Below are positions 18,956-57,823 of a stretch of 64,000 nt of DNA, in pieces. The stretch spans positions 24,676,001 through 24,740,000 of the forward strand of contig OZ210885.1 in NCBI GenBank assembly GCA_964658305.1. The letters are read 5' to 3'. Origin of the DNA: Leptogorgia sarmentosa (lineage: Eukaryota). The first letter of the stretch is position 1. Every line of letters starts with the position of its first letter. The position numbers and the translations under genes were made by a program. The notes below the pieces were generated by a model that saw only the letters and a program-made list of their open reading frames with translations, was not told where the DNA came from and searched no databases.

Positions 18956-19751
18956 ATATATCGTAAATGTCTTCCCCCGACAGACCAGCCGGTTGTTAAC
19001 CCATTTTATTCCAAGCTTTCACAAGTACAATTGTTGTGCATTTGAGTTAGACAAAAAACAAGGCACAATGGGCCACATTTCTGTTAAATGGGTAAAAAAG
19101 AGACATGGGCTGATAGTTTTATTAACCCATTAAAGCTTCAAAGGCTCTGTCTGGATAAGTAAAATAGCATGGTATTAGACACAGCAAAGTAACAAAGTAG
19201 GGCACCTGGAAGCATTGCTGTTTAACCCATGCATTGAGGGGCAGTATTCTTTCACTAAGATGTAAAATTATCGGGCAGTAGACAGAGTAGTATAAACGTC
19301 AGGGAGGCAATACATTGCCACTAAGTTAATGCATGATTAACCAGAAAATTGATAGTTAATTTGTAGTTAACCCTTAGCTATGCCCTTTAAGAGTAAAATT
19401 ATCTGGTGTTAGATAATAAAGTAAAATAACAAAGTAGTGGAGTACGTTGCTGCTTAACGGGTTAACATTTATATGGCATCAGACACAGTTCAATAACAGT
19501 ATGGTTTGCTGGTTGGACTTGCAAGTTCATCCAAATGGTAGCACTGTCTACCTGCATGACTGTGAATACAACTCTTTTACAACATTCTACTCAAACTTCC
19601 GGGAACCATTCTATGTACAGAATGCACAATGGTTTGATTTAGTCTTCTGTTTGGACAAAATGTCCAATTAAGCATGGACAAACTGGAATTTGGTCAAAAA
19701 ATGTCTGACAGTTGCAAGGGCCAAAGTTGAGCTAGTCTGCGAACAGGCTCC

Positions 19752-19910
19752 CAAGAAGGGGGTGAATATTCATATATTTATGTTCTACCTGAAAAATGTC
19801 TTGGAAATCAGTTGTTTTTAAGTTCACTTCAAATGAAATTAGTTGGGCAGAGCACGAATATATGAATATTCACCCTGCCCCCAATTAACATTCTAGTTTT
19901 GCCCTTGGGC
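19752..19910. repeat. Small degenerate MITE-like remnant
   Basis: Inverted pair GGTGAATATTCATATATT (about 19761) and AATATATGAATATTCACC (about 19857). No TSD established. Confidence 0.4.
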
Positions 19911-20406
19911 ATCTTGGATGGTTGCTTCAGGATTCCGCTATAGAGCATCAACTGAGCGACAAATTCTCAATAATAGAAATATGTAATTAACCCAACATGT
20001 TATATGAAAATATGAAAATTACAACTAAGGCTCTCTGCTATAAGTATTAATGAATAAGTCAGCTTTCTTAGATATATGCATGATTTTGTCTAGCATTCAA
20101 ATATGTATGAATAATAATTGGATGAAAAAGCAAGACAAGCAAAAACTCAAATAATCTGTGTTTTGTTCTTTATAACAAAACAACCAATAGTACAATCAAA
20201 AACTGACTCAGTCATGAAGTGGTATATCCACAGACAGTCAAGGTTCATGCAAACATAACCTGCTTATAAACAAAACGAATCAATAATGATATACATCATC
20301 ATATAAACATAACTAAGTTTCAGGTACATAGTATATACAGACAAACGCTGTTACCATGTTCAGAGAAATCAGAAATATCAACAGTCAACAGTTTTAGTCA
20401 GTTTAT

Positions 20407-21504
20407 TCAGCTATTCGCTGAGTCGCTGACTTGCATATGTATGACTAATTTGTCGTCCATTGCAAGTTTAAAAACGACTTTCTTTACTTGGAGCAGAGTC
20501 TCTACAATCATCTTTCTTGGGAGATGCGATGTGTCAGTGTCCTCAATGTTGTAATCTTGTGTTGCTTTAACAGAAGTGAACATTGCATTTAGAACCTGGC
20601 CAGAACAATGAAAACGACCTTTATTCTCGCCACTTTCGTCGACAATAACGATATTGGCACTGACGCTTTTCTTCAGATCTTCTGTCATAGTCGTTACGTT
20701 GCAGGTACGACATTCGATGAATTTTTCTGTCGACTCAGGAATCCGGCTTCTGCAAGAAAGGCAAACATGTGCGAAGGATACATCAACAGCCAGCACTCGA
20801 CCAGTCACGTCTACCGCTTCCTTGACTTTGGGTTTCATTTCCTCGGCTGCTGCGATTACTTCTGGTGGTATTTCTACGACTTTAATCTCTTTCACCAAGG
20901 ATTCTGGCGTGCCATTCAGACACCGTTTATTAAAGTAGGCCACTTTGAATTTCTGGAAGACATACGACTCGCCCTCGGATACAGTTGGGATCATTTTCTC
21001 CCAAATCGTTGCTTCGATTACAGCACTTGTGTCAGCCAGGATCAATTGACATTTATCCAGATCTTTCCTAAATGCGTGAGAAAAGACCCTTTCTGTTTGT
21101 CCTTTCCAAATTACTTTCGCTTCGATGGACACGACGTCGCCAGTAAAGCTGGACCAGAGTAAATTGCTGATCAACAGTGGACCCTTGTCGCCGGCAGGTT
21201 TGCTCCATGGAAACGAAATATTCTTGGTTCGCATGACCTTCGAAGTATTGTTCATTATATACTCGATATTCTCCGGTTCAAATTTACGTTTCTTCTGGGA
21301 TACGTTAAAGATTTTGACTGGTGACTTTTTCTGCTCGTTTTCTTTTATGTTTTGACGTTTGTCTGGACTAAAGCAAACCACATGCCTATTTATGTCTTTC
21401 CCCTGGATTTTGAAATCGAAGTATCTGTTGCCCGACGACGGCGTTTTTACGTCGGAGACTTCATGGATGTAACCTTCGACGTCTTCTTTTTTTCTTTCAG
21501 CCAT
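20407..21504 (-). CDS. RPA70-like multi-OB-fold ssDNA-binding protein (365 aa, intronless, intact), probably a Helentron accessory gene
   Basis: OB-fold-like segments (VEGYIHEVSDVK...YFDFKIQ; VSIEAKVIWK...LILADTSAVIEATIWE) and a CxxC-x12-CxxC zinc motif (CLSC...CRTC) as in RPA70 DBD-C. Lies head-to-head with the Rep-Hel ORF. Confidence 0.7.
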   Translation of the reverse strand: MAERKKEDVEGYIHEVSDVKTPSSGNRYFDFKIQGKDINRHVVCFSPDKRQNIKENEQKKSPVKIFNVSQKKRKFEPENIEYIMNNTSKVMRTKNISFPWSKPAGDKGPLLISNLLWSSFTGDVVSIEAKVIWKGQTERVFSHAFRKDLDKCQLILADTSAVIEATIWEKMIPTVSEGESYVFQKFKVAYFNKRCLNGTPESLVKEIKVVEIPPEVIAAAEEMKPKVKEAVDVTGRVLAVDVSFAHVCLSCRSRIPESTEKFIECRTCNVTTMTEDLKKSVSANIVIVDESGENKGRFHCSGQVLNAMFTSVKATQDYNIEDTDTSHLPRKMIVETLLQVKKVVFKLAMDDKLVIHMQVSDSANS

Positions 21505-22439
21505 TTCGCCTCGGCTTTTTGTTGTCGTTTTTGAGGGTTTTTCACTTTTTCTGTATAATTTTTACGCACCAGCAACTGAACCGCCTCACGAAAATACGAA
21601 ATGATAAACCGCACGTGCGTGCCTGCAAATACAGGTTCCGATCTCAGTGGTTCCGATTGGCTAATGAAGCAGAACCGGAAAAACAGGCTCACTTTTTGTC
21701 TAAGTATATGCAGGCTCATGCGACAACTAGAGAAAAATACCCTCGGCAAAAGTAAGTTATTTGTAGAAAATTCGTAGCTTTTTGCCTTTTTCTTTGAACT
21801 CACTAAACGTGTAATTTAGTAGCGTTGAATGCGCCGATGTTTTGCATGAATTGGCAAGCACAGTTCGTCATGCCAATGCTCGCTGATGACCACGCAAGAT
21901 GAATCGCAAGATACTTCGCAAGATGACTTTCCCTAGTAACACTAGGAACTGACAAGTAATATTGCAGGCTCATGCGTTATGTTTTGGAACTTGTTTGTCT
22001 TTGAGTCTTTCGTAAGTCGTATTTATAGGTTGCTGCATGTCGCAGTGCACGTGTCAGTGTCGTCGAAGATATGCAATCACTGCTATACCAGCCTACGGCA
22101 ACAACTCGAAATATTTATCAAATGTGCTCGTATCACATACATAAACTTACAGCACTATTTGTGAGAAAGCCTACACTAAAATTCGTAGAGCACACTTTTC
22201 GATCAGGGCCAATGATTCACAAATACCAAAATACCGAAAGGTACTTTTACATTGCTATCAAACCTCTTTTGTTTAAATTACAATTTTACTCATTGAGTAT
22301 GTTTATAACGCATAGAAAGCATCAGAAGCGAATTTTATACACTCTACAAAACAAAATAAATGCTCTTTGGAGGGCGAAGGGTCAGAAGGGCCTTCATGTC
22401 ATGAATATTTATTACACTCGCGTGGTGTATTACAACAAC

Positions 22440-24776
22440 ATGGCGTTTTATACAAACGAAGTTCGTGTAACGCTATTTATTGATTCAAGTACATGCACAG
22501 ACAATACTGCAATGCTTTCTGACAAGAACATACGATACGATGACTGAAAAAAGAAAGGACATACCATCAATAACTGTCCTACTATTGGCAAACAAAGTCA
22601 AGGTTCGAGTATAAAGCATTTCCAACACTCACGGTATTTTCACTTTCAAACTATTGTATTATTTTCTCATTTTGATAGTAGTGTGAGACAGTACGTAAAG
22701 ACCAGATATTTTGAAACCCACAAACAAAGGGCATTGCTGAATCATATTTTTCCAGGTTTCTTTCTGAAACTTTCTTTTTACCCTGCAAGTGATAGGCAGG
22801 ATTTAGCAATTCAGCATGTGTACAAGAGTTTAACTCACATAAAAAGTGTTTGTCAGTCTGCACTTTATTCTGATATTGAAACTAATCCCGGTCCCCCATT
22901 TTATATCGATCCTACTGTTACAATAAAGGCACCATACAGCCAAGGTAGTGTAAGCATATTTGGAGAAACAATGTCTAGGAATGTGTCTGTGTGCTCTAAT
23001 ATATAACAAAAGGCGGCCTATTTGCTTGCCAGAGGACCTAATTCAAATAATGGCTGTTGGCAATGAGTTATATTTAAGCCTGTCCCAGTCAGCAGGTCAA
23101 ACGTTTCTAATGTTTTCCAAGTTTTCCATCACAACTTACAGTTTTCGACACAGATTATATACTGGAGTATAGTGAAAGCTATAGTGGTATAATAATTGGA
23201 GACTGTTATCTTGATGGATATCAGTACTGTGTGCCATTTCACAGAGCATTTGAATTGCTACTGGCTGAAAACTATTCTTCATTCATCTTAACAATCAACA
23301 GTAATGCTGTTTGCATATATTGTACTTGTTATGGAAAATATAAAATTTTTGACTCGCATTCAAGGGATATTTATGGGCAAAGTAATCCACAAGGTACATG
23401 TGTGTTGTTAGAAGCAGCTAGCATTGATCATGTTATTCTACATTTCCAATCCTTATACAATGAAAACAGTCAATTTGAGATAAAAGGTGTAAATATTCAG
23501 CAAGTTAGTGCCTCAGATATTAACCAGAACTTGCTTGACAATGTTGAAAACTCTGATTTCAAAGAATTTGAATCTGTACATGAGCAGAACTTAACTAACA
23601 ATACAGGAACCTCTGACATGACACCTTCTAATGTCTTCTCAGACACTGAAAGTGCTAACTTTTCTTGCTGGTGTTTACAATGCTGTGCCGTTTCATTGTA
23701 TTCCATTTGCTACTCCACTGTGAAGCCATGTAATTACTGGAATGAAACTACAGTGACTGAAATTGCTTACTTTGGTACTATTTTGTACAATAACACAGGA
23801 ATGCACACTCGTACTGATCTTCCTAGAAAGGTTGAAATATGTGGAGCTGAAGTCCATGTAACATTACAGAATCATTTTGAAGGGGTAGTTAATAACAATT
23901 TAGAAACTCAATTAAATATACTAGAAAGTTTCATATGTAATAGCAGTGAAAGTTCTGGTTTTTTACTTTGGCTTGGAAATTATTGTATTTCTTGCATATT
24001 TCATGGAAGATCAAGGGAAAAGTTGTATTCAGTATTAGCATATGATGGTGCAGATAACCCACCAGCTATATGCTTCTATAAAAATGCAACTGACAAGCAC
24101 ACTTTAATGAAAACACTCTTTAACCTAGCACATGACAAAATTAGGGGAGAATGTACTAATTATGAAATTCAATTTCTATCTTGTTCTTCTGAAGTAACTG
24201 ACATTGAAAGAAAAAGGGTTATGAGAAAACACACACAACACTATCACAATGATAACATAGCACCAGCACAAAAGAAACAAAAGTTAGAAAAACAGAAAAT
24301 ATGGCACAACAATATGCCATGGGAAGATTTAAAAGAACAACCACAAATAGACATGTACATTGAAAAATTTAAAAAGCAAATTAAAGCTGGTCCATTTTAT
24401 ATCTGCTGTGTGTGCAACCGGACATTATATAGAAACTCTGTAATCATCTTAAAGAAAAGTAAGTATATCCGCCAGGATTGTTTTATGATTCAATTTTCTT
24501 TTGATGGCAAAGGGTACATCTGCAAAACTTGTGATGCTAAACTAGTGAAGGGGCAGAAACCATGTCAAGCTGTTGTGAATAACTTATTTGTTGATGAAAC
24601 CCCTGCTGAACTTGCTGCATTAGAGAAACTTGAACAGATCCTGGTTGCGCAGAGAATAGTCTTTGAGAAAATCGTAATAATGCCAAAAGGACAACAAAGA
24701 AAAATTAAAGGAGCTATATGCAATGTGCCAGTAGAGTGTGATCAAACATACAATATTCTACCTAGGCCACCTGATA
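22440..24776 (+). pseudogene. Helentron polyprotein part 1: leader, 2A-like motif, C76-like cysteine protease domains, Cys-rich/DUF6570-like region
   Basis: ATG at 22440, in-frame TGA at 22545, DIETNPGP at 22872-22895, then APYSQG...QCLGMCL...GNELY and KIFDSHSRD, YICCVCNR, ICKTC, GQQRKIKGAICNVP. Frameshifts near 22970 and 23125. Interrupted by the hAT at 24777. Confidence 0.8.
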
Positions 24777-25360
24777 CAGGGGCGGATCCACGGTAGTTTC
24801 CGTAGTTTCCAGAAACTACTGAAAATTTTTAAATGATCTTTTTAAATTAATGTTATAATATGCGTTGCTAATTTGAGGTGATTTTAAGGGCATTTTGTCA
24901 AAATTTTCTGCAAGAATTTTGGTGTTTTTTTTGTCGAAATAGTGGCTTTTTCGTCGAAAATGTAAGTGAAAATTATCAAAAACGCGGGGAAACCGGCCAG
25001 CTATGCGTAGAAGTTTGGGAACTAGCAGGAAACTACTGAGCTTCGAGGAAACTCTTCTCTGATTGGTCGGAAACACCCTGGCCTCGTCTCTTATTGGCCG
25101 GAAACTACTGAGGAAACTACCGAGAAAAGTATAAATACCTAAGCCTACCCCGGTTAGGTTCTCTGTTTTGTAATGACATTGTTGATTTCAACTGTAGTTG
25201 ATTAGTTTCATTCATTTCTACGTTCGAATTTGAGAAGAAAGCTCAAGTTGTAAGTTTTTCTAAAGATTATTGAAATTTAGCTTGTTGAGTAATTATCTTC
25301 GTTCGACGTTAGCGAATAATATTAAAATTAAGATCGATCAATATTTAGGTTTCCGCTTGA

Positions 25361-28142
25361 ATGAATATGGCAGATCAAGTGCGAGCTGTAGCTCGTGGTG
25401 AGCCGATCTTTCGAAAGGAAGACTGCTCTCCGCTTGATATTGGTGCTGTTCTTGATCATGCCGGGCAATTTTCTGACGCTGAGAAGCTACATTTTATTGA
25501 AAATGTATGGAGTCCGCGTGATCCCTTGTTTGAATTTCCGTCGACTGTGGAATCAGGAAAATCGCGTAAATTCCAACGTGCATGGCTACAACAATATTCA
25601 TGGCTTGCTTACTCAAAGTACCTGGACGGTGCCTTCTGTTTACCGTGTTTTCTTATTTGGCCGAGGTGCGACTGTGGCTAAATTGATGAAGTCTCCTATT
25701 ACCTGCTGGACCTCTGCAACCAGTCGTTTTAAAAAACACTCTAATGGAAAGTGTGAGACCCACAATACTGCAGTTTTGGATAACTTTGTGAGGGTTATGA
25801 AGCGCCAAATTGTACCTATAAACGAGCAGCTGGATACTTTACTGCAACAGCAAATTGACACGAACCGCAAAATCCTGTCATCTCTCTTAAAGACTGTTTT
25901 TTTTATGTGGCTGCAACAACATTGCTCTTAGAGGTCACCGAGATGATAAACCTGGAAATTCAGCCTCTCAAGGAAATTTTCGGGCTTTGCTTGCGTTCCG
26001 AGTGGACAGTGGTGATGAGACTCTACAGCAGCACCTGGAAAATGCGCCCAGAAATGCTACTTACACCTCCAAAACCATCCAAAACGAGATGATTACAACT
26101 GTGGGCACATATTTGCTGGATAAGCTGTCATGCGAGATGAAAGGTAGCAGTATTTTGGCAGATGAGGCTGCAGATATCTCGAATAAGGAAAACCTATCTA
26201 TTGTAATCAGGTTTGTGGATGCCTCTAACTCTATACGCGAGGACTTTGTTGGTTATCATCCGTGCAAAGAAGGGACAACTGGAGTAGCCATTAAGAACAT
26301 AATTTTGAAAGCTGTGTCTGATTTGGGACTGTCCATGGATGACTGCCGAGGGCAATGCTATGATGGTGCTGGCAACATGGCAGGACAATTTAATGGAGCC
26401 TCTGCTCTTATCAAGCAACAATATGAGAAGGCTATTTATGTTCACTGTATGAGCCATCGGCTAAACCTTTGTGTAGCTGACACCTGCTCTCTGACTCTTG
26501 TGAGAAACATGATGGGAGTCGTGAAAAAGCTCTCAGACTTTTTCAATAATTCGCCAAAGCGACAAGATTACCTTATGAAGATTGAAGCGTTACTGCCTGG
26601 GAGTAATCACCATGTCCTCATTGATGTTTGCAGGACTAGATGGATTGCACGCATAGATGGGATGGACAGGATTGTTGAATTGCTACTGCCAGTTTTTTCT
26701 ACCCTGGAAGACATTTCATTAAACAGAGATGCATTTGGCAACCAGCAATGGAACTACAACAGTAGGAATGATGCACAGTCCTTGGTGAATGCTATCAACT
26801 TCAGTTTTATTGTTACTGTTGTTGTTGTGAAACACATCTTGGGTTTGACTAGGCCCCTCACAGTTAAGCTGCAAAGAAAGGAGGCAGATCTCATGAAAGC
26901 TAAGGATGAGATTGATAGTTTGAAATCTATCTTGACTGATATGCAAGCCAACATTAATGACAGACACCACATACTGTATGATGAAGCAGTTGAACTGGCA
27001 CATAGTATCCAAATTGAACCTTGTATGCCCAGGTTAACCCAGTGTTATGGAAACCCTGCGACGATGGTCTTCCAACTTGGTTGGGACTGTATAGACTCGA
27101 CAACATGACAACCAGAAATATTACACAGGTTTTATTCTACAAGTACTATACGTTACACTCTGACGCTCTAAACATTATATGATTTAAGGTTACATGGTTG
27201 TATTTATAGTAAAATTACAGGAAGAAAATAACTAAATGATTACGTTAAAGGAAGAAAATACCAAGGCTCCTACGCTTGTAGGAAGATCATTCTTTTCTAA
27301 CTTTAGCTATCTATGGGAACAGATTAGCATAATTTGCGTTCGAAGGAAGAACATGTCAATCAGGGCAATGCATAGGCATTGTTACAATATCCCCTTGAAT
27401 GGCAAAGACCTAGACCTATATTTCCTCTATATATTATTTCTATATATTGCTTATATATAACTTATACTTAGCGCCTAAATGATGGGACTTATTTATCGAC
27501 GCGCGCACATTTCTTAATTTGCGCGACACCCAGAGACAAATCTACAGGGCAAATAATCCAGCCCAAACACCAGAGGATTATTACAGGATAAACTTGACCA
27601 TAGTGTTCCTTGATCATGCACTGCAACAACTTAACACCAGGTTTCAAGATCAAGTGTTTGTGTGCTATAAGGGGTTGTCAATAATTCCCTCACATTTGCT
27701 AGAACACCCACAGGATTGGAAGGACCATGTTATGGAATTCTGTCAGAATTACAGACAGGACATTCCCAATGCTGCTGGTTTAGAGGCAGAGCTTATTTTG
27801 TGGGAAAGATTGTGGAAGGATAAGGAAGGTAAAAAGGAAGATATCCCTGACAGAATATCATTCACCTTCAAGTTTACTGACAAAGAATGTTTTGTAAACA
27901 TTTTTGCTATCCTCCAAGTGCTGGCAACTATCCCAATCACCTCTTCCAGTTGTGAAAGGTCTATTTCAGTGCTACGGAATTTAAAAAACTATTTGCGGAG
28001 TACCATGTCCCAAGATAGACTGAATGGCTTGGCCATTATGCATGCACATGCTGATGTTAACTTAAACCTTGGTGAAATTATTGACTTGTTTGCAAACTTA
28101 CACCCAAGAAGAATGAGGATGGCAAACATTTTGCAGGATTAG
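25361..28142 (+). pseudogene. hAT transposase (THAP12/ZMYM1-like: TTF zinc finger, DUF4371, hATC), frameshifted and interrupted by a solo LTR
   Basis: WLAYSKYLDGAFCLPC, LRGHRDD, ILADEAAD, CRGQCYDGAGNM, VHCMSHRLNL, CRTRW, SCERSISVLRNLKNYLRSTMSQDRLNGLA. Confidence 0.9.
27043..27528 (-). mobile_element. Solo LTR (486 bp)
   Basis: TGT...ACA termini. 5-bp TSD CCCAG at 27038-27042 and 27529-27533. Removal rejoins the transposase as PRLTQRQIYR. AATAAA on the minus strand near 27130. Confidence 0.85.
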
Positions 28143-29149
28143 AGGAAGGTGCATGGTGTGCAGATAAAGACCCAGACATGAAGGTATTGAGTACCAGTAT
28201 ATAGAAGTTCTCATTTTCTTGTGGTCAATTGACTTATAGAGAATTTGTTGATATTTCCAGTTGTTGCTCTTATTCGTAAATTAAAACTAGACTGAATCAA
28301 TGACGTGAAAGAATTGAGTGATGACTGATGAGGTAGTGGTTGTGGCCTTATGGCTTATTCAAATTTTATTTAATATTTATTTTTTTATTCATTTATTTAT
28401 TCATTTTGAAATATTCTGGTTGTTTTGTTGCAGTTGTCATGTTGTTGTGAATTTAACATGAAGGAAAACAGAGTTGAATGACCCATATTATAGTACCGAC
28501 ACAAGGAATATTTAAAGGTGATTAATTAACCTATTTTATACTCATGTCTATTTATTTGTAGTTAATATTTGTTGTCCTTCTATTACAGTTGTTGCTGTTA
28601 TAGAAAACATGATGAATTACATGTACATCTTATTGTATACAAACTATATTAAGGATGAACCATCAAGGTATTGATTAATTTATTTTGTGATACATTGTAC
28701 ATGTCATTCATGTCTTGTCATTTTTATTATCCTTTCAATAGAGCATATCCATTCAATTGTTGTTGGAGACTGAACAGCTCACAATGCCAGTGGTGTTGGT
28801 CCATAAAGTGTGAAAAAGGGAAGTACATGACATGCTTTCTTTTAACATACATTTATGTACTAATTGTCATATTCCTAATTCTTCATTATTCCCTCTCTTT
28901 TTATCATATTTTATCTAGTTATATCATGAATCAAAGAGGATAAAGTCAAGAGCAATGCTATGTAACCTGCAAAACTGTGATCAGCTGGATGGGAGGTTAG
29001 CAGTGAATAGCTTAGCAATGTCCACTTTTAATATGAACCTAGTGGCCGAGTCTACTGCGTGTAAACTGGATTGAAACTTCAAACTAAAGTTAATTATACA
29101 TTTAAGTGTATGTACATAATTGGTAGTACAAGGCATGTAAGTAAAACAC

Positions 29150-32100
29150 TTATTATTATTATTATTATTATTATATTGATACAAAATGCTGTAATGTTTG
29201 TTTGATAATTTGATAAAAATATTCTTGTTCCTCCCGATAAAACGTTCTATGATGTAATATATTTAGATAAATAACAATTAAAAATTTATTAAAAATGATT
29301 TAGTCCATGCATTATAAAAAGCATTCTTAAAAACCGAGCCCATAAAAAAAAAGTCTATAATACATCCGCGATCACTGAGTTTAATTTAAAGTCGTCCACA
29401 TTATCATTATGTGATCTGAAGGGTGTTCTAGATCCTCTTGTACATAGATGGACAGATCTCAAGATTTCAAAAGATAATCGAGTTCTTATCCAGGTTACTA
29501 CGTTACTGTAGTCATCTCCGTTCTTCCGTGCCAGCTTCTCGGCAAGATTTTTTAAAAACAATTGACATTCGGTTCCCATGCCTCCATTTGTCCCAAACAC
29601 TAAGGGAGTAAACGTGCCCATTTCTACATCCAATACTCTTTGCTGGTATTTTCTTTTCTTCTCGTTTTCCTGCTCCTTGAATATCTCGGTCGTGCTTTTG
29701 TTCTGGTTACATTGAGAGTTTACGTGCGTTACACGGACGTCAAAGAATGCCGTAACCCCCCGTGTCCAGAAATCACTAGCCTTTATATCAAGACGTGCGT
29801 CGGAGCTTCTATTCGTGGTCCTTAAGTTGAATTTCTCGTTGTCCAATTGGATGAGTTTCGGTTCTACCTCCACGTTGTTGCAGACTTTGCTGACTAATGT
29901 AGTCAGTAAGTCGCGAACACCGTCATGTCTTCGAGCTACGAAACCTCCTCTTTTACATGAGAGAGCGTGGTTGACTGTGAACGCTGCTCCACACGTACAG
30001 AAACTTGGCAGATCAGATAATGGCAAGTTGTAGCGTAGTCTCATCGAATCCCTGAATTCTTGCTTGTTTAAAACCAAACCTTGCTCTTCTATGGGTATAG
30101 CGTTCAGCCATGAGCTTGCTCCTTTATCTCTGGCTTGAATAACATGCTGCAGTAGGTCATCTGAGAGGGAAGAGTCAATACGTCCCATTTTCACACTCAC
30201 ATTTGTCTTCTTTAATGACTGTTGCTGCTTCTTTAAATCCTCCGTTATCGTTGGCATGGTTGTGCTTTGCGTAATAATAGCCTCCGTGTGTGGACCCGTT
30301 ATTATCTTCGATGTTGTGTATTGTTGGGGTGCCTCTTCTTTCAATGACGGTATCCCTAAACCACCCTGGGCTGGAGTCAGTGTGAAGAGATCAGTTAACT
30401 GGTCAGGTAGTGGTTGTGTTTGTCCAAACAATTCTGGTAGAAGTAACTGATTTACAACCTCCTGGATAGGGTCAACATAATCTTCAAATGAATCAATGGT
30501 TCGCAAGAAATATGTAAATTTCGATTTGTAACCTTTTGTAAAGGCAGCATAAGCTGCATGAGGTTGGCTCTTTGCAATTTCACTTAGAGTTTCAATCTCT
30601 GCTTTCCATTGGGCAATCTTCTCGTTGCAGTACTCGTCTTTGTAACCCTGAGAACCCACAACTGCCCCAAGATGGCGTTTCCCTTCGCATGTTATGTTGA
30701 CTTCTTCTCCAAAAACATGTTCTGCTTCAGAGGCAATTGTCTTTGATTTGACAATTAGCCAGCTTTTGGAACCATTAACATGATATCCAAATTTCTTTCC
30801 TTCATCGCACAGGGTCTTATACCAGGAATATAATGCCGTGATCTTTCCTCCTCCTGCTGAGTCGTCAGCTAACCAAACTTGTTTCACACCAGATGTGTTA
30901 CATCTCAGGTTTTGAATGATGAGTGATGTGTTAACTAAGTACCATGGCATGGCCAAAGGATCACCCTGTGTGATTCCCTCTTGGGATAAGATTTCACCTC
31001 CACCACATACAAATAGCCTAGACGGATGTCTATAGGTGTTTACTATGTAGAGTGAGATTTCTTTGCACGTGATTTGTATATTATGCATGGCCACATGTCG
31101 ATTCATCAGATTGAAAGCATTGCTCGCATCAATCAATAGTATACCATCACTTTCATCTTCTGCAAATATCTGACTCATGGCATGCACAGCGGCTTCGGCA
31201 CCTGCACTGTGTCCTGCGCAAACTTGCAGAGGCCCTGCTGCTAGTTTGATTTCTTCCTTGAAGAACGCGGATACAGTTTTGCCAATAATTCGCCGTAATA
31301 CTTCTCCTACTCCTATAGGCCGGATTCCCGGGTTCTTATCCAAAGGTATTAGCCTGCACGAGGTATAAGCTTCAACAAGTGAGGGGTCATATGATGATTT
31401 CAGTAGATTTCTCGTCATTATGGCTATTTCTTCTCTTAAACGCTTTCCTTCTTTGGTGAAATTCTTTGAACATAAGATTCTTCTGTACAGGTCTGCGTCC
31501 ATTCCCGATGGTCCTGCTGACCCTTTTGTTCTCATCGCGGCGTTCTGAATCATCTGTTCGTCGATTAAATCAAAAACATTTGGCGGGGTGTTATCCATTG
31601 GACCGTACAGAAGACATTCTTCTTCAATATCTGCTGCGGGTGGATGCTTCTTCTTGAGGTCTTCTAACACTTCAGGCGTTAGCGTGAGAAGCCCCGAAGA
31701 ACTCTCTGTGTCCAAGAGCTTTATGGCTGCTGTTATCTTCCCTTGCATTACTAATTTCGCAAACACTTTAGATAAATCTTCAACTGACCTTGCCTTCTTC
31801 GATGTTTTAAACTTTTTTTGGATGAATCTTACTTCTTTCATTAGGAGCTTTATCTCACCTCGTCTCCATAACAGTAATCTGCGTTCAATAGCTTCGGTAT
31901 GCTCTTTGCTTTTAGACTTCGCCGAGGGTTTTTGTAAAATCAGCGTAGGGAGCACCATAAATGCTTTTAAGGCAATCGAATTTAAATCTGCATTTGCATT
32001 AAATTGTTTAAGCCAATATGTCAACTCGTCTATGAAATCTTTCCCTGCTTTACCCGACGGTATATTGAAAATATTTCTTCTAAAGTGAACGATTTCATCG

Positions 32101-32700: not shown

Positions 32701-32946
32701 GTCTGAGGATTAATCTTATTAAAATTCACGATTTTGTACTGAATAAAAGAAACTAAAAGCAAAATTTGCAGTTGAAATATACAATTTTAACTTAGAAATA
32801 TTTCTCTCAGAATGCAGGAAAATGGGTTTCCGCGGTTCTAGATTTCAAAATTTTACGGGGGAGCATGCCCCCGGACCCCCCTAGCGGCTCGCGCCTTTGG
32901 CGCTCGGAAACCACAGGATCAATATTCTGAATCCGCCCCTGTGATA

Positions 32947-35748: not shown

Positions 35749-36002
35749 TATGGGGCGCCAAATATGACATAAAGATTAGGTTAATTATACAAAGTTAAAG
35801 TCAAATTTCTAAAGTCAAATAAATATATAGAAAGTAAAAATTGTATATGTAAAGTCAAAAAGTGAATTATATAAAGTAGAAATAGTATTTATATAGTTAA
35901 AAACATCGATAAAGCGAAAATGTTTATATATATAGTCATGGGCACCAACGGTCAGCACGTGTCATTCAGTTCCATGCCCAGAACGCAATTTAGAAAGTCA
36001 AT

Positions 36003-37906
36003 ATGGCGGAAGAGAGCAACCCATTGAACCTGGAGAACTTTTTCAGAAATATCCCATCGCAGTTGGAAGAGGCGCGCAGGAATCTCCACTCAGATAATAT
36101 TAATGTTTTGGAATTTATTCAACGTCGTCTTGAAGATAGTATTCATGTTTTAAATGTTTTGATTTGGCGAAGTTCCTGCCTTCAAATAGGCGAATGCGAG
36201 AACCTACTAAGATGTTTGTTTTCTGAGCTACAGCAACTATACGCGAGGTATGACAATCTATGTTCCCAGTCAGTAGTTCAAAGTGAACACCATTTTTCGT
36301 GCCCCACAGAAACTACTATTAGAGGACGGCCGCGGTATTCGATATCTAACGATGTCATTTCAAGTTTACATCAAATCCATCGTAGCTGGCAGCAAGTATC
36401 TGCTGATATTGGAGTTGTAGGAATTCAAGTCCCTCAGTTTATTTAACTATTTATTTATTTACTCCCAATATAAACGATACAAGAACGTATACATGTGTTC
36501 TCTATTCTAGCCTGCTTGTCTCGCCTGAACGCAGGCATTGTTATTAACAACCGGAAGTTAAAATATGTTCTCGGTTAGTCGCTACAGAGTAAGCTATCGC
36601 ACTCTGCTCAGGCGAAGGCACGAAAACAGAATGGTTGTAAACAACACAAGTGGGCCACGAAGCAGCTACAGTGATGTAAGCAGTGATCAATTGTGCCAAC
36701 ATATTTCTCAGGTTCTGCACATTCTTCCTAATGCAGGAGAAACCTTTGTTTTGGGGGCATTGCGGCAAAGAGGAATTCATGTACAAAGATATCGGGTACG
36801 AGATGCAATTTGGATGGTAGATCCACTGAGTCGAGCAATGAGAAGATCTGTAGCTGTTATGAGACGTGTTTATAATGTTCCTTGCCCAAATGCATTGTGG
36901 TAAGTGTCAGTGAGGCAGACAGTCTTGCATTTGTCATGGAATATTATCCTCAGTAATATTTTCAGACTGCACTATTGGGAAACACCCCTGTTATAGTATA
37001 TTGTTGGCTTTCCTGTTACTTCCACCAGGACACTATCAAATGGATATTTGACTGGTTGTAGACAACTAAACCCTTTTTTATTAACTTTCAGGCATATTGA
37101 TGGCCACCGTAAGCTTATTCGATGGCGTTTGGTGACGCATGGTGGTATTGATGGCTACAGTAGGTGGTATTGATGGCTACAGTAGGTGCATTGTTTATTT
37201 AACATGTTCACCAAATAACTGTGCATCTACAGTTCTCAATCTTTTTATTCATGCAGTGGAATGGTTTGGGGTACCATCAAGAGTTAGAGCAGACTTTGGA
37301 ACTGAAAATGTCGATGTTGCTCGCTATATGTAACAACACCCTGATCGTGGGACAAACAGAGGAAGTTTTATTACAGGGAAAAGCACCCACAATCAGAGAA
37401 TTGAGAGATTGTGGGCTGACCTCAGAAGAGTTGTTATCAGATACTTTGAACATCTGTTCCATCACCTAGAGCAATCAGGTGTGCTTGATGTTCTGGATGA
37501 GAAATGTTTGTTTGCCCTTCACTATGTATTCATTCCCAGAATAAACAGAGCCCTTAATGAGTTTGCAGCAGACTGGAACAATCATCCACTGAGCACAGAA
37601 GGTAACCGCTCACCTCTGTCCCTATGGCACACAGGGGTGATGACAATGATTAATTCTGGCCATAGTGCAATTGAAAGTCTGATCACTGACAACTGGAATG
37701 ATTATGGAGTGGATGATGATGGACCTTTGCCAGAATCTCATTCTGATAACAATGTTCAAGTACCAGGTGTTGAATTTGATGCAAGTGATGAGCAACTACA
37801 GTACTTGTATAATGCAGTAAATCCATTAGAAGATGATGGAAACCATGGCTGTGAACTTTATTGCCAAACTATTAACATAATAAACCAAATGCTGGCTCAA
37901 ACATAA
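36003..37906 (+). pseudogene. IS3EU-type DDE integrase/transposase, disrupted
   Basis: GRPR..HTH (IGVSYRTL), [67 protein letters not shown]. Disrupted by a solo LTR, a 22-bp tandem duplication at about 37141-37184 and a TAA at 37331. Confidence 0.88.
36416..36586. mobile_element. Short solo LTR-like insert (171 bp)
   Basis: TGTAG...CTACA termini. 4-bp TSD GAGT at 36412-36415 and 36587-36590. Removal restores ADIGVSYRTLLRRR. Confidence 0.8.
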
Positions 37907-38410
37907 ACACTAATCTTTTGAGTCAAATGTTTTACATTACTGTTTTAAAACTTGAAATGTCAACTTTACTTCTAAACCAACCAAATCTGGAGAATACATA
38001 TTTAGTATGTTGTTCATGTTGTTCTAACATAAAATACTTTTACTTAATATCTACCTACAGCCTACCACATCCAACCTTGGCATATCGAATGGAGGTGTCC
38101 ATAGACTTCTTGAACTGCTCGTAATTTTCATGTGCAGTTGGTAGCTTAAGTTGTCTGAAACAGAAGTCAACTGCTGGCAAAACATGTCCCTCCTTTGGCA
38201 GGAAGGACACACTCAGTTTTTCTCCCATAGTAGGTAGAGAAGGCCATCCTGTCCAGAACTGCACCAAGTCTTCTAACTGCTCTTCATCTGTACTTTCTGT
38301 GAAATTGCAGCAAATAGAACCTTTTTAGATCAAACTAAATGTAGTAACAATACCAATGTACTGTGCATAAGCACAGTTAGTTTGTAAAAAAAAATGGGTA
38401 CCAGTATCTA

Positions 38411-39128
38411 CAGGGTGTATAAAAAAAAAGTTTACTCGCGAAAAATGTCTTTTAGGCCGAAGCGCACGCACCCCATTGCAAACCATTGGTATATCTAAGT
38501 AGTTTGAGCCCTTCGGATACATCCTACACTAAAAGTTTGCAGAAAACGACCATTTTACGACTACGAAAAGTGTTATAAAAAGCCGTAGTAAAAATGGCTT
38601 GCGCGAAAAAATGTGAGGCGAAAAATGCAATTTGATTTGACAGCCTAAATCTATCGAACAGGTTTCATAAGTTATTCAAGTTTTGAGAAATGTGCGATGT
38701 CCGAAAACTGGATTTTCCGCAATTTCTTCGCGTAATTACGTACCTTTGGGAATTAGCTTCCAATTTGCATTGGTAATTAATGCAAATATCCAATTATGCA
38801 TAAATTAATCGGTAATCACGCAGGAAAGAACGCAAAATCCAGTTCGTCTCAGCGTGCACCAAATTTCTCAAAACTTGAATAACTTATGAAACTTGTTCAA
38901 TAGATTTAGGCTGTCAAATCAAATTGCATTTTTCGCGCAAGCCATTTTTACTACGGCTTTTTATAACACTTTTCGTAGTCGTAAAATGGTCGTTTTCTGC
39001 AAACTTTTAGTGTAGGATGTATCCGAAGGGCTCAAACTACTTAGATATACCAATGGTTTGCAATGGGGTGCGTGCGCTTCGGCCTAAAAGACATTTTTCG
39101 CGAGTAAACTTTTTTTTCATACACCCTG
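38411..39128. mobile_element. Tc1/mariner-type foldback MITE with long (about 270 bp) TIRs, in an intron of the HECT-like gene
   Basis: TA|CAGGGTGTAT...ATACACCCTG|TA. Arms at about 38411-38690 and 38860-39128 are near-perfect reverse complements. Confidence 0.9.
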
Positions 39129-41306
39129 TATAATTATAAGAATTTGTAAAAAAAAATTGCACTGTGCCTACCTCTAGCTGACAATTCATCTAAGTATTTT
39201 TCAAAAAACAACTTTGCATTTACAGGACTGTCACCCTCCACTTGGGCATATTGTATGATTTTTGTCAAATCATTCAGTTCAATCTGAGAAGTTGCCTCGG
39301 GAAAGACAACTCGCCTAATCTCTTGATGTTGTGCGGCTAGGTCAAGCAAATTCTTTCTACCAGTCATTGAAGACAATCCCTTTCGCATGTCATCCAACGA
39401 TGGGATTCGCTTGGTTATGACTTCGTAAGTAAGGCAACACTCGTAGGCTAATTGCCTATTTGAAGGGCTGACCATTCCATGTGGAAAACCCGATGCCATG
39501 CGATATCAAAATGTGGGATCGATATGTAGCACCAATATCAAATGTGGGATCTTTATATTTGGCTATTACTTGACTTACAAAACTTTTCTCTCTTGTTATA
39601 AGCAACTCCTCTTGTATTAGCCCTTTTTTCACATGGCTAACAAATGATTTGAGCTCGTCCATTGGGTCACATTTGTGCCTTTTCGGATTCCAAACACTTG
39701 TATTCCAAATCTCCTCATCAGAAGATGTATCTGAAACTAGGAGTTGAATAAAAAATAATGATAAGCACTCATCTTTGATTATAATTTTAGCTGCATCTAC
39801 CAGGCCAGTCAAACAAACTATTAGTCAAGATGGTTGGAAAGTCATGCTCAGGTATCTGAAAATGCAAACTTAGAATTGGGCTGTGAATAAATCCCATATC
39901 ATTTATTATTTTAACAATGAACAGACATTGTGAAGTCTTGTTCTTTTTTTCTACTGCATTATGTGGTTTTAGTGAAGCTTCAATTCGCAAGTAACATAGT
40001 GTTTAAATAAACAATTTAGAACTTTAGAAATTAAATGCAAGTTGTTGTTGTTGGAACAAATTAACTAAGTGACATGCAGCGAGAGGTAATGCATTGCATT
40101 GTGAGTAAAGCCTGTTTTCTACTTGGCAAACAACAAAAAAAAGTAATTTGGCAGAAATAGTCTGATATGAGACAATACAATATACCAGGGGTTGTAGGCT
40201 TGTAGCTAGCAATGGGCTGACTTAAGACACTTCCTAAAGTGGCTTAATAATATATGAGGACAAAAATGAGAAATTACCAATTTCATCTTGGTTACTCAAA
40301 AGCCTATTGACTGCATCATCCATATTACATGCATTTGCTATAATGCTTTCAAGTTCTCTATCTGGGAACATTTCACGCAACTGGATCTCTTCATCTTTTG
40401 ACAGGTGCTGGCAAGTAACATTGGTGGTAGGGTAATCGATACTGGCCACTAGTGGTGGGCTGCTGGTAGTAGGGTTCCAGGTACTGCTCATGGGGCTGTG
40501 ACCAATACCACTGCTTGTTGAGGGCAATGTTGTAGGATCATCAACTTGGACTGCTGGTTGCTTCAGGTCGGTTGCAATATGTTCAGCACTTGTGTTCAGC
40601 TGCTGGGGGCTGATAATCTGCGATACTGTGTCACACATGTATGGCTCAATGCTCTTTGTACAAAGCAGATCAGTTTCTGGCACAAGCCAAACAGTTTTCT
40701 GAGAAAAAAGTTTTGATATCTTTTCTCCATCAAGCTTGCTGCCTGCCAGATTTGGTGCAACCAGATCATTACCAACACCCAACATGATTTGGAAGCTACA
40801 TTGTATACAATAACAAACATAAGATATGATATAAAAAAATACTTTGAACAGTAAAATATTTTAAACTTTGCTGCTATATTAACAGAAATAGGTTCTACCA
40901 GTCACACGAGTCAATATATCTGATTATCTGTGCCCATGGACTGTGCATGTGGATGTATTGTCACTAATCAGTATTCTGTGATTCAGGCTTTAGCTACTGA
41001 TTTGCTTGTTAGTTATTGATGAGACATACATGAAGTTTTATCGTCTCTACTTTTTCTCTCTCTTCATCTTATACACAGCAAAAAATTTGGAGCCTGCAGT
41101 TCAACAGGATTGAACAATATCACAGAGTATATATCATACAGAGGTCTAACTCAATGTTAAAAAGTAACATTTTCATGTACCCACTTTTTTAACTCGGTCT
41201 GGCGAAAAGTTTAAATTTAGTCATCATCATCCAATCAGATGAACACATCTGGTAACTTGCAGAGCATGCACACAAAAAAGTGGGTTACAACAGTTAGACC
41301 TCTGTA

Positions 41307-41832
41307 CAGGGGCCGGTTGTTCGTAGCCCGTTTAGCTTAAACGGTGGATAAGTCAAATTTAAATTACACTCCCGTTCATCTCGTGAATAACTGAACATGA
41401 ATTTTAAACCCTAAATATGTAGTTATTTACATAAGTGTTCTTCTCAGATTGAACATTTTTATTATTATTGTTCAATGAACACACAGACTTGTTTGATATT
41501 TTGGACTTATCCACCGTTTAGGCTAAATGGGCTATGAACAACCGGCCCCTGGGGTGTAGTGGAGGGAAGAGGGGGGCTGAGCCCCCTTTGTTAAAATTTC
41601 AAGTCAATTTGGGGGGGCTCAGCCCCCCTTTATTATTTTAGTTTTGTATGCTAAATTTGATTTGACCATTGAATCCCTATCAATTCAGTAGAGATAACTC
41701 TAGCAGAAGAAAACATGCAACAATTAGTTGACAATTATTACTTGTCAAACAAGCAGTTCAGTGTAGAAGTTCCCATCCCTCCCCCAAATTTGTCAGAGCC
41801 CCCCTTGTTAAAAATCTAGGACTACACCCCTG
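41307..41832. mobile_element. hAT-type MITE, interrupted 3 bp from its end by a Harbinger-type MITE
   Basis: Reconstructed TIRs CAGGGGTGTAGT / ACTACACCCCTG. 8-bp TSD CCTCTGTA at 41299-41306 and 41833-41840. Confidence 0.82.
41310..41548. mobile_element. Harbinger-type MITE in a CWG site
   Basis: TIRs GGGCCGGTTGTTC.. / ..GAACAACCGGCCC (about 45 bp, imperfect), flanked by CAG and CTG. Confidence 0.78.
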
Positions 41833-42928
41833 CCTCTGTATATGTAATTACTCTGTGACAATATTTTGCTGCGCACAAGTGCCCACATTGTTCATAGTTG
41901 TCAACAACATTGACAATATTGTTGAGTTTGAACTGGGTGTAACAATGCTGAACATTATCGGTAGCAAACTTTCGTTCATCATGTAGTGTAAATCAACAGA
42001 ACTTTGTGAATTGTGATTCATATTAACAGTATAAAAATAACAGCATGAGACCTTGTGTATACATCAATTCAAATCAGCATTTTGGAACAGAAACCTTACC
42101 CAGTATCATTAAGCACAAGATTGAAAGCATCTCTGAGGTGTTGGAATACTTCCTCTTCTGTCCACTCTTTATAGAATTCAAAGCATTGAATGACTTGCCC
42201 TCTGCGCACGAGGTCAGCCTTGTTGCTTCCGCGTACGACAAATCTACTTTCAGCCTTTGATAGAAGCACGACTTCTCGAGTAAATTTCTTGGGCCTTGCT
42301 CTTCTGTTTCCCCTGCCTCGTGATCGTGCGCTACGCGAACTAAAGCGATTTTGGGAGCCAAGAACAGGAATGAAAGATGCCACAGTTCCTCCTCCACGAC
42401 CACGGCCTTGACCTCTGCCTCCAGCACGAAATATTGCTCGCAGTTCTTGCTGCGGTGATGAATACGACCTTGCATTTGAAGACGATGAAGTGTCAGTCGT
42501 AGAACTGCCATGCGACGATGAATTACTTATGTTACTTCCCTGAACAGCGTCAGAAACGATTCTTCGAAAACCGGGATGGCTGACAAGATTCTCAACTACA
42601 GCTCTGAGATCACGTTCTTGGTTCTGATCAGTCGCCATATTTGCATAACAAAAGCGCTGCATTTTGGCGCGAAATGTGGCAAAACTGCGAAAAAGCGTGA
42701 TTTGATCGTTAGTGCCCATTACTTTATATATTTTTTGCGTAAGTCGTTGTATATATTTATTTGAGATTTGACTTTAAATATTTTTACCGTTGATCTTATA
42801 TATGTATTTATTTTGACTTTACATATACAATTTTTACTTTCTATATATTTATTTGACTTTAGAAATTCGACTTTAACTTTGTATAATTAACCTAATCTTT
42901 TTGTCATATTTGGCGCCCCATAAATAAA

Positions 42929-45260
42929 CGACCAAGAAAATGAAGATGTAAGGCAAAGACTACCTAACGATTCTGATGAAACTGAGTCATATAACGAATC
43001 ATTACCACAACATCTTGCATCAAGTGCTGATTCAGTTCAACCACCTATTGGAATAATTGCTCACAATCAACCATCAGATATAAGTGATGATGACCTACGA
43101 AAAACTATAAGATCATTGAACAATGAACAACGCTATGCATATGACCTAGTTCTTTCTTGGTGTAGAAACAAGATGGCAAACCTAAACACACTTAAACCTT
43201 CCAAAGTAGATCCGCTATATCTCTTCGTTACTGGAGGTGGAGGTGCAGGCAAATCGCACTTAATCAGAGCTATATATCATACAGTTACAAAAATATTCAG
43301 ACATGCTCCTATGAATCCTGAATTATCTTCTTGTTTGCTTATGGCTCCAACTGGTGTAGCTGCTATAAATATCAATGGAACAACCGTACACACAGCTCTA
43401 GCAATTCCAAAAGAATGTGGGAATAGTGTACCTGCAATGTCTGATCAGCGAAGAACACAAATGAGACTGTCCTTGGCTGAATTGAAGCTTATAATAATTG
43501 ATGAAATATCAATGGTCTCAAACATGGGTTTGCTGCATATTCATCAGAGATTGAAAGAGATATTTGTTACGTCCAATAGTGAACTTTTCGCAGGAATTAG
43601 TCTACTCACTTTCGGTGACTTTTTTCAGTTACCACCAATTCGAAGTGCAACAGCCTTTTCCAATTACAAGAATGATGCATTCAATCTATATCATCCATGG
43701 CATGCTTTTAAAATGGCAGAACTAACACAAATCATGAGACAGAAAGATGATATCCCCTTTACACAAACGTTAAATAGACTTCGTACTGCTTCACATACCA
43801 ACGATGATATCAAGTGTATCCAGTCTCGAGCAATAACTACAAGTGATGAAAACTATCCATTGGATGCATTACACATTTTTGCAGAGAATGCACCTGCAGA
43901 TGAATACAATATTAACCGTCTAGAACAAATTCATTCACCTGAGTACATATTAAAAGCTTTAGATCAATTCCCACCTAATGTTCGAAAACAGGATATTGAA
44001 AGATTTTTGTCCAATGGGAGATCCGAGACTGGAGGACTTGAAACCAAAATTATGATCAAAGAAAGTGCAAGAGTAATGCTAACAACGAATGTGGACATTA
44101 CTGATCGATTAATTAATGGGCAGTTAGGTACAGTAATCAGAATTAGTGTTGATAATCATAGCAATACACCCTCTACTGTCTTTGTTAAATTTGATGATAG
44201 TAATGCAGGACTCTCTGCTATGCGAAGTTCATCAAGTAGTTTTGCAAGAGAAAACAATCTTGTTCCTATCAAACCTGTACTGGCGAGAATTAAAGTCAGA
44301 CCAGGAAAACCATCATCTCCTGAAATACAAAGATTGCAATTTCCTTTAACTCTTGCGTGGGCATGCACTGTGCATAAAGTACAAGGATTGACTCTAGATA
44401 ACATCGTCGTCAGTCTTGATTTAAGGAAGCAAAGGTACTTTAACTATGGTCAAGTGTATGTCGCACTCAGTCGAGCAACGTCTTTAAATGGTTTGCACAT
44501 CTTAGGAACACTCGAGAATAAACATATTCGAGCTAATCCTAAAGTCCAGGAAGAATACGAACGATTGCGTGAAATTTTGAGGGTCCAACCACAACTAACC
44601 CTAGATTTAAATGACAAACAGTCTGTTTCCATCTGTATTTTAAACATCCGATCATTTAAGAAGCACTGTCTTGACTTGAGTAATGACCCAACTTTATCAA
44701 AATGCGATGTACTTGCTTTAACAGAGACTCAACTCTTAAGCAATGTTGGAAATGATGAAATGAGCTCAATTCTCAACGATTTTTTTCTTCACAGGCAAGA
44801 TCATAATTCTGATAAGTTCTTAAGTTTGGCCGTTTGCTACAAAAAAACTATTACACTTAGTGAAGTAGCATATTTCAGTTCAATAAATGGGTTAAAATTT
44901 GTAATTAGTAGCTCAGGTAACAATACGTCTTTCACATGTCTATTACTTTATCATAAAAATGGACCTAATATTCAGCAGTTCATTTCATGCTCAGAATACA
45001 TAATGAACAGCTGTGATATCGATATTATTTGTGGTGACTTTAATATTGATTACTTTAACCAAAAGAATAGTTATTTGTTGAAACAACTCGCTGAATCGTT
45101 AAATTACTTTCAACTTGTAACTCAACCAACATTTGTTTCATCTGGAAGTCTTCTCGACCATGTCTATGTTAGGAACTCAATAAGGAATAATGTTGAAACA
45201 AAAGTAATAAGTGTATATTACTCAGATCACGACGCTGTTAACGTTACATTAAAGTTTTGA
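42929..45260 (+). pseudogene. Helentron polyprotein part 3: PIF1 helicase + EEP/AP-like endonuclease (frame open to the stop)
   Basis: TGGGGAGKS, APTGVAA, IIDEISMV, GDFFQLPP, LTQIMRQKD, LINGQLG, QFPLTLAWACTVHKVQG, YVALSRAT. Then LNIRS, LTETQL, CGDFNID, LLDHVY, YSDHDAV. Confidence 0.93.
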
Positions 45261-49004: not shown

Positions 49005-49016
49005 AGCTGAACCCAC

Positions 49017-57500: not shown

Positions 57501-57505
57501 AGAGT

Positions 57506-57813: not shown

Positions 57814-57823
57814 AGTAAATATA

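Follow-up and report, generated by a model that had tools for sequence, protein, structure and literature searches.

The question raised by positions 20407–45260 of the 64,000-nucleotide stretch of Leptogorgia sarmentosa DNA analysed here (assembly GCA_964658305.1, contig OZ210885.1, positions 24,676,001 to 24,740,000 of the forward strand; hereafter the window) is whether the coding fragments scattered across it once belonged to a single mobile element and, if so, to one of what kind. The window is eukaryotic DNA with a G+C content of 35–40%, and between 20.4 and 45.3 kb its stop-to-stop open reading frames (ORFs) are fragmented; Pfam recognizes DUF6570, two halves of Helitron_like_N, PIF1 and Exo_endo_phos in the pieces, among which ORFs of hAT type and integrase type are interspersed. 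A sequence-only reading of the same DNA had joined these pieces into a virus-like Helentron, in which a 2A peptide, a protease, Rep, a PIF1 helicase and an endonuclease formed one polyprotein accompanied by a divergent RPA-like gene. The stretch very probably represents a dead, low-copy autonomous Helentron of the HLE2 group (a rolling-circle DNA transposon) in a coral-type cnidarian genome, interrupted by three nested insertions and further damaged by a stop codon and two frameshifts; in its intact relatives the long frame is predicted to be split at a 2A (StopGo) site. Relatives assigned to a species are from Oculina patagonica, Acropora digitifera, Paramuricea clavata and Nematostella vectensis.

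The single frame can be recovered by splicing. When 24777–32946 (8170 bp), 33869–34140 (272 bp) and 35749–42928 (7180 bp) are removed from 23111–45260, the remaining 6528 nt provide 2,175 codons that are free of stops up to a terminal TGA, with the peptides LPRPPDRSGIILL, KTKGHNMTDEEVE and CFYDPINDQENED spanning the three junctions. In tblastn comparisons with the intact relatives P0033, P0034 and P0045, query coordinates are contiguous over each junction (769|763, 1076|1076 and 1616|1615 for P0034, and similarly for P0033 and P0045), indicating that no protein-level loss or duplication occurred at any of the three. The insertions and junction peptides named in the sequence-only reading are therefore borne out, collinearity with intact relatives included, but its frame start at 22440 and its length of about 2,400 codons are not; the frame most likely begins at an ATG at 22071 or 22122, for a total of ~2,505 codons. 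This start is favoured because the window peptide VRKPTLKFVEHTFRSG fits the N-terminal block of the family and because DNA similarity to L001, a metagenome locus described below, resumes at 22108. The resulting domain order is leader, 2A, VTD, VTD-like domain, DUF6570, HUH Rep, PIF1 helicase and apurinic/apyrimidinic (AP)-type endonuclease, and the catalytic motifs are intact in each enzymatic domain of the window copy.

The C-terminal domains, all on the plus strand, identify the group to which the element belongs. DUF6570 is divided by the first insertion into a first part at 24548–24776 (Pfam E 1.8e-11, profile positions 1–77) and a remainder at 32947–33104 (E 3.7e-5, profile positions 101–132). 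The piece that contains this remainder (32947–33868) also includes the start of Rep (Helitron_like_N positions 1–131, E 1.3e-16), which continues, followed by a linker, in 34141–35748 (positions 134–191, E 3.8e-13); its HUH motif SPHLHALIW is located at ~34337–34351 and its two-tyrosine motif YVCSYFTK at ~34925. A PIF1-type superfamily 1 helicase occupies 42929–44501 (Pfam PIF1 E 1.4e-25), with the Walker A motif GGGGAGKS at ~43233 and the Walker B motif IIIDEISM, and its counterpart in the relative P0034 matches PIF1 structures at E 8.5e-35. The frame closes with an AP-type endonuclease of the endonuclease/exonuclease/phosphatase (EEP) class and the stop codon (44706–45260; motifs LTETQ, GDFN and SDHDAV), for which relatives carry PF03372 or PF14529. 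A C-terminal AP endonuclease is the feature by which Helentrons are defined in the account of Thomas, Vadnagara and Pritham (2014; PMC4067079), and DUF6570 has been proposed in the HELIANO study as a marker that separates HLE2 from HLE1 (2024; PMC11417382). The window element has an HUH Rep and PIF1 helicase in one frame, a C-terminal EEP endonuclease and DUF6570 upstream, the traits of HLE2 membership.

Upstream of DUF6570, a VTD (peptidase C76-like) deubiquitinase domain is found at 22896–23560 (plus strand), split in the window over three frames, in which the motifs APYSQG, QCLGMC and FDSHSRD are present. Both the catalytic Cys (QC.AM) and the Asp-x-His (FDSH), the latter described as a hallmark of the VTD family (Erven et al., 2022; PMC9741609), are retained in 16/16 aligned relatives as well as in the out-of-frame pieces of the window. 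Herpes_teg_N was detected in all of five relatives (27.5–45.3 bits against a cut-off of 25) and above the cut-off in one of two additional ones, the other, P0057, scoring 24.0. The model of the relative P0043 has as its best match in the PDB a zebrafish Helentron VTD (8add; E 1.7e-14, template modelling score TMt 0.85, root-mean-square deviation 2.1 Å over 214 columns), followed by cytomegalovirus M48 (2j7q; TMt 0.71–0.73), and by analogy with the zebrafish enzymes the first VTD of the family is predicted to cleave ubiquitin chains. A second, degenerate VTD-like domain follows at approximately 23650–24210 (plus strand), where the Cys motif QCCAVSLYSIC is kept. Comparison of the two domains within the family (hhalign probability 96.2%, E 2.5e-9, 111 columns) indicates that the second is a diverged copy of the first, and the P0043 model gives it a confident fold (residues 586–765); no Asp-x-His was seen in it, so it is probably inactive. 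DUF3106, another domain recurrent in HLE2, corresponds to the helical region after this second domain and lies outside the leader.

The point at which the relatives' frame is predicted to divide during translation, into a leader and a transposase, is the 2A motif DIETNPGP, located by motif search at 22872–22895 (plus strand). Across all six frames the window contains no other D[VI]E.NPGP (3.7e-5 expected; 0/300 shuffles produced one). Its occurrence among relatives was assessed in two censuses, the sets of which may overlap. The first comprised 42 relatives obtained from two word-index searches, 28 of which contain D[VI]E.NPGP, 27 of these together with FDSH; the motif is kept in 27 of the 28 relatives that span the site, always 159–166 residues N-terminal of FDSH, and in two relatives it recurs farther upstream. 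Three of the four relatives with FDSH and without 2A begin too late to span the site, and the only site-spanning relative in this census that lacks the motif is P0053, from a brittle star. In the second census, for which P0043 was compared with 1.84 billion representatives (50% library), 26 among the best 149 hits span the site, 20 with the strict motif and six with one-residue variants, as decaying copies would have. Since the motif is kept even though relatives are only 35–65% identical in this region, the octapeptide is under constraint. The tract upstream of it is conserved too (VYKN.NH....C..(K)L..D), is unlike the leucine-rich class of a 2A catalogue published in 2025, and in the P0043 model forms a helix (residues 338–349) ahead of the motif (352–359), at a predicted local distance difference test score (pLDDT) below 50. 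In 2A elements the upstream tract often adopts a helix between positions −19 and −10. A Cys-motif pattern search in fish and echinoderm relatives, meant to locate the position equivalent to 2A, returned no match.

Ahead of the 2A site is a leader, which the sequence-only reading had missed. In the window it is a decayed frame at 22122–22895 (plus strand; alternative ATG at 22071), whereas in the family it reaches ~470 residues and contains the conserved blocks RGRPTLKD.ERFRNG, (S/N)DC.(I/L)(F/L).KA, RSRY.KF, VYKN.NH and RDREPSRIPVK..L..KSRK.R..V...I..N.PKSS, the first of which VRKPTLKFVEHTFRSG resembles. Among 19 leaders examined, 18 have a Lys plus Arg content of 15–27% and 13 have a hydrophobic stretch of 45–55 residues; in the P0043 model the leader is of low confidence except for a long helix over this stretch. 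No Pfam family was matched by the leaders of the relatives' proteins, and an ESM Atlas look-up with residues 1–355 of P0037 yielded no usable match. The conservation of the leader at the sequence level suggests a protein with a function of its own.

The damage to the window copy is concentrated in this 5′ region, where the closest relative, P0027, reads without interruption. A TGA lies at 22545–22547 inside the leader frame and, in comparison with P0027, frameshifts occur near 22966–22970 (frame 0 to 1) and 23121–23126 (frame 1 to 2). Introns were considered as an explanation of the frameshifts and ruled out, as intact relatives are continuous there, each shift costs just one or two residues and the flanks align. 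The single TGA and two frameshifts counted previously are thus present, but tblastn similarity to P0027 starts only at 22776, the leader 5′ of that point being without significant protein similarity, so the damage may exceed these three lesions; at the DNA level, 22108–22360 is 79% identical to L001. Separately, runs X1 and X3 contain contigs with a variant of 22330–23414, a region where run X5 matches the window: the variant has another letter at 22545 and lacks 30, 1 and 18 letters at 22440, 23125 and 23232, respectively. These contigs point to population forms with fewer lesions, and the variant might be allelic or come from a close paralogue.

On the opposite strand, an RPA70-like single-stranded DNA (ssDNA)-binding gene lies at 20407–21561 (384 codons open; likely coding sequence 21504–20410), with its stop codon at 20407–20409 overlapped by AATAAA. 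The encoded protein has a zinc ribbon (C267-x2-C270 and C284-x2-C287), and 24 homologues were found, of which six have a precomputed PF16900 assignment; REPA_OB_2 was recognized in 12/20 members of the family. A family profile searched against the PDB matched RPA70 (1jmc, E 9.2e-4) and also archaeal single-stranded DNA-binding protein structures. The model (pLDDT 82) consists of three beta-rich modules, in line with the tandem OB folds (DBD-A/B/C type) of RPA70-like proteins, the last of which bears a C4 zinc ribbon, and the top Foldseek matches are RPA70 chains (9pd4_N, E 2.7e-18; 4gop_C, E 5.1e-16) over 417–429 columns, at a template modelling score of only 0.25 because the domain orientations differ. 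A phmmer search of PDB sequences with the window's RPA-like protein and the N-terminal piece gave nothing significant. The spacer between the two divergent genes (21505–22121, ~617 bp) contains blocks 87–91% identical to L001 and may be a shared promoter region. Among 21 metagenome loci encoding RPA-like relatives, the closest two, L001 (73% protein identity) and L015 (58%), have leader, 2A and VTD upstream on the opposite strand, as in the window, and L001 is collinear with 20496–23157 at a DNA identity of 70–91%. The RPA-like gene is, in our judgement, probably cargo of this Helentron family.

From these components a mechanism can be proposed. The HUH Rep would nick the end of the element and the PIF1 helicase would unwind a single strand, which the RPA-like protein would coat, and the AP-type endonuclease would nick a T-rich target. 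The VTD would strip ubiquitin chains, by the precedent of the zebrafish Helentron VTDs, and would likely shield the transposase or counter ubiquitin-dependent restriction by the host. A ribosome arriving at NPG|P would free the leader, basic and in most relatives bearing the hydrophobic stretch, and then continue, such that one mRNA would give two proteins; with the VTD beginning 15–25 residues after NPG|P in relatives, skipping would yield a deubiquitinase-transposase with a short free N-terminus. None of this is functional in the window copy any more.

A number of observations weigh against one or other part of this picture. The window's own VTD pieces have no Pfam match, which is accounted for by the split of the domain over three frames, nor does its RPA-like protein, and the endonuclease falls just below the Pfam cut-off (Exo_endo_phos_2, E 6.3e-6, 26.5 bits against 27.4; Exo_endo_phos, E 8.3e-4). 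Decay of the leader affects each of the three DNA copies seen for the window's sub-family (window, L001 and L015); in relatives the leader is known from automatic gene predictions, and in P0027 it lacks the hydrophobic stretch. Furthermore, a canonical 2A motif is no guarantee of skipping, as non-skipping and ‘reduction’ classes are described in a 2026 preprint (PMC13405545). The conserved NPGP could accordingly serve without separating proteins, either as a brake that stalls the ribosome and lowers protein abundance or, combined with the hydrophobic leader, as a dual-targeting switch in which unskipped product is tethered and skipped product free. According to the same preprint most retrotransposon-associated 2A-like peptides reduced protein abundance, 2A-like signal sequences with dual targeting have been reported (Roulston et al., 2016; PMC4981915), and the hydrophobic stretch in 13/19 leaders would suit a tether. 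Retention of the full canonical motif in 27/28 relatives argues for separation instead, as do the conserved blocks of the leader, which suggest a separate protein function; a role without separation is therefore considered unlikely, although it deserves more weight than either of the alternatives that follow.

The place of the RPA-like gene within the element is bound up with the ends of the latter. No terminal or subterminal inverted repeat beyond chance was detected: the flanks are linked only by 11–12-mers at chance level, their best local alignment scores 24 (shuffles: mean 23.6, maximum 33), and there was no strong hairpin; contig depth is approximately single-copy over 20040–24776, with no pile-up that would mark a boundary. 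As the ends were not found, it is by inference that the gene is placed within them. It might therefore be a gene of the host that lies nearby, a domesticated gene or a constituent of another element, and this is in keeping with a frame that is intact where that of the transposase is broken. Only 2/10 RPA-like loci with at least 1.5 kb of upstream sequence have the polyprotein there, the other eight having none, and in the distant locus L002 the RPA-like gene (698–1807) and Rep-Hel-EN (6587–11805) are convergent, the latter 4.8 kb downstream, which implies that Helentron families differ in where RPA lies with respect to the transposase. L001 and L015 could, moreover, be orthologous loci of other corals and not independent transpositions, and in the HLE2 classification of the HELIANO text RPA is confined to subgroup a (PMC11417382), whereas the window element has the traits of subgroup b. 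Set against these points are the divergent layout and similar spacing common to the window, L001 and L015, at DNA identities of 81% and of 66–70%, published Helentrons with RPA ORFs (PMC4067079), the upstream position of RPA relative to RepHel in HLE2 (PMC11417382) and the multi-copy nature of the RPA-like family itself, spread over many contigs. An origin of the gene outside the Helentron is thus improbable, and its status as probable cargo is retained.

That the element is instead a virus-like, self-contained episomal replicon and not an ordinary chromosomal transposon is very improbable: the polyprotein-style 2A expression, herpes-tegument-type deubiquitinase, membrane-type leader and element-encoded Rep, helicase and ssDNA-binding protein would all fit a replicon, but no capsid-like or packaging gene is present among the ORFs of 20407–45260, neither the N-terminal piece nor the RPA profile had relatives when scanned against a viral contig collection, the copy is chromosomal, approximately single-copy and present in runs of two organism labels, and every component is known Helentron cargo, so the ‘virus-like replication module’ of the sequence-only reading is best taken as a metaphor, nothing capsid-like or episome-specific having been found.

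The three insertions that interrupt the Helentron frame are themselves recognizable elements. The first (24777–32946, plus strand) is hAT-like, with the terminal inverted repeat (TIR) CAGGGGCGGAT, a 5-bp duplication (TGATA) and ORFs for DUF4371 and hAT dimerisation. A 1228-bp contig of run X3, under the same organism label, joins 24771 straight to 32942, and a contig of run X5 carries the filled left junction with 0 differences from the window, demonstrating that this insertion is real, precise and polymorphic. Contigs from independent reads thereby contradict an assembly artefact as the source of the junctions. Nested within it is a 3.6-kb element (29142–32714) that a related hAT contig of run X5 skips and that has about four times the contig depth of its neighbourhood in run X1; its minus-strand ORF (29355–32639, 1094 codons, P0098) has RVT_1 (E 0.047) as its sole Pfam match, although by eye, given a LADD motif, it looks like a reverse transcriptase. 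Other hAT copies lack 27037–27527 (491 bp). The second insertion (33869–34140, 272 bp), within the Rep domain, is a miniature inverted-repeat transposable element (MITE) of a very high-copy family, with a 13-nt TIR (CCAGGTGATCTCG), a contig-depth spike and a partial second copy at ~1796–1852; since the repeat at its borders is AT, 2 bp only, the target duplication is ambiguous. The third (35749–42928) has 112-nt TIRs at 98% identity and a 6-bp duplication (AATAAA), and contains an rva_4 integrase-core ORF (37334–37906, Pfam E 4.2e-36) together with nested MITEs at 38405–39130 and 41307–41551. A contig across the MITE at 33869–34140 or across this third insertion was not among the matches listed, which were a part of those obtained and so bear on neither presence nor absence.

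Other repeats were noted in the window. A repeat at 19712–19912, just past the 3′ end of the RPA-like gene and at ~30-fold contig depth in run X1, was considered as an end of the Helentron and rejected, since its sequence is that of an ordinary small inverted-repeat element. At 4423–5085 there is a dense tandem array of period 15 nt (and 9 nt), with 26 overlapping copies of a 162-nt reference, and a 99-nt inverted pair (7296–7394 and 15200–15298, 98%, 7.8 kb apart) probably marks both extremities of a further large TIR transposon. At 49014–49816 and 57501–58841, ~8–9 kb apart, the window has large inverted repeats, as long as 451 nt (98%) and composed of 68-bp tandem units, in a region of raised G+C content and strong GC skew.

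With respect to novelty, each of the components named in the sequence-only reading (2A, C76/VTD protease, Rep, PIF1, endonuclease and RPA70-like gene) was verified by motif, Pfam or fold. The 2A and protease N-terminus recur in other copies, as does the neighbouring RPA-like gene within the close family. Its suggestion that the combination was undescribed is, in contrast, mostly wrong, as the core architecture is already catalogued in the literature: Helentrons with OTU-type proteases and RPA proteins, including a mite Helentron with an RPA ORF, appear alongside the endonuclease in the 2014 account (PMC4067079), most non-viral VTD domains were traced by Erven et al. (2022; PMC9741609) to frames of Helentrons, with vertebrate, insect, cnidarian and mollusc examples, and Herpes_teg_N, Exo_endo_phos, DUF6570, DUF3106 and RPA are listed as recurrent in HLE2 by HELIANO (PMC11417382). 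The interpretation was right on anatomy and overstated on novelty, the locus itself being a dead Helentron copy of a kind already known. Only the 2A and the conserved leader ahead of it appear to be new; no description of them was encountered for any Helitron-like element in the literature searched, which did not extend to Repbase, Dfam or bioRxiv supplements. The main texts of large 2A surveys mention retrotransposons and give no Helitron or helicase context. The supplementary catalogue of a 2025 survey in Cell Reports does hold KLSGDIETNPGP twice, one entry being an unclassified UniParc protein (residues 132–144) in which it is positioned as in P0040 and similar relatives; one or more of these peptides have therefore been harvested already, their context unrecognised.

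Eukaryotic DNA transposons are usually thought to produce one transposase per transcript. With a conserved 2A ahead of the transposase, StopGo recoding, published so far solely for retrotransposons and RNA viruses, would reach a DNA transposon as well. Whether this cnidarian lineage comprises the first DNA transposons with 2A, making a membrane-associated leader, a deubiquitinase-transposase and an RPA-like protein as three products, with the leader a new accessory factor of rolling-circle transposition, is a proposal that we advance tentatively and with slightly more doubt than conviction. If it were true, the expression strategy would resemble that of picornaviruses, and the leader might act, for example, as a membrane tether or a switch of transposase dosage. 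The family also supplies natural 2A variants whose upstream tract is not leucine-rich, which could be useful in co-expression tools. As regards annotation, the locus illustrates that nested insertions can conceal a nearly intact 7.5-kb transposase frame, and that the RPA-like cargo of this family slips past Pfam-based surveys.

Among known systems, the closest are the Helentrons of HLE2 subgroup b, for which the endonuclease and Herpes_teg_N are the distinguishing domains (PMC11417382). The window element shares with them the Rep-PIF1 protein with its AP-type endonuclease, DUF6570, an N-terminal protease and an upstream RPA-like ORF; the 12–16-nt (sub)terminal inverted repeats and 3′ hairpin of the group, and its insertion between two T residues without target duplication, were not identified in the window. 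It differs in the conserved leader and canonical 2A ahead of the protease and in the presence of RPA beside subgroup-b traits, a discrepancy with the published subgroups that may be explained by an RPA too divergent, in this copy, for Pfam. The zebrafish Helentron domains DrT1 and DrT2, which are active deubiquitinases that cleave ubiquitin chains (PMC9741609), are likewise tegument-like, precede RepHel-EN and have the Cys and Asp-x-His, in agreement with the structural match above, and two tandem VTD-type domains are found in the window family as in DrT1. In the coral family, however, the second of these is without Asp-x-His and the first starts shortly past the 2A, whereas the fish relatives P0049–P0052 have an OTU domain and no NPGP. 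Plant Helitrons (HLE1) are alike in having their own RPA70-like ssDNA-binding gene, but in HELIANO's description this lies downstream of RepHel, in elements without endonuclease, DUF6570, VTD or 2A (PMC11417382). The nearest parallel for the 2A itself is found in the non-long terminal repeat (non-LTR) retrotransposons of APE type, the only ones of these elements for which 2A is reported by Odon et al. (2013; PMC3708506), and which, according to that account, carry, close to the start of the protein, a canonical D(V/I)ExNPGP in the same long frame as an AP-type endonuclease, occur in marine invertebrates including cnidarians, and have been proposed to use 2A to set an N-terminal product apart from the enzyme. 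In those elements the 2A is 40–80 residues from the N-terminus and follows a leucine-rich LLxxGD tract (PMC3708506), whereas in the window family it belongs to a DNA transposon, follows a C..KLS.D tract and terminates a leader of up to ~470 residues with conserved blocks of its own.

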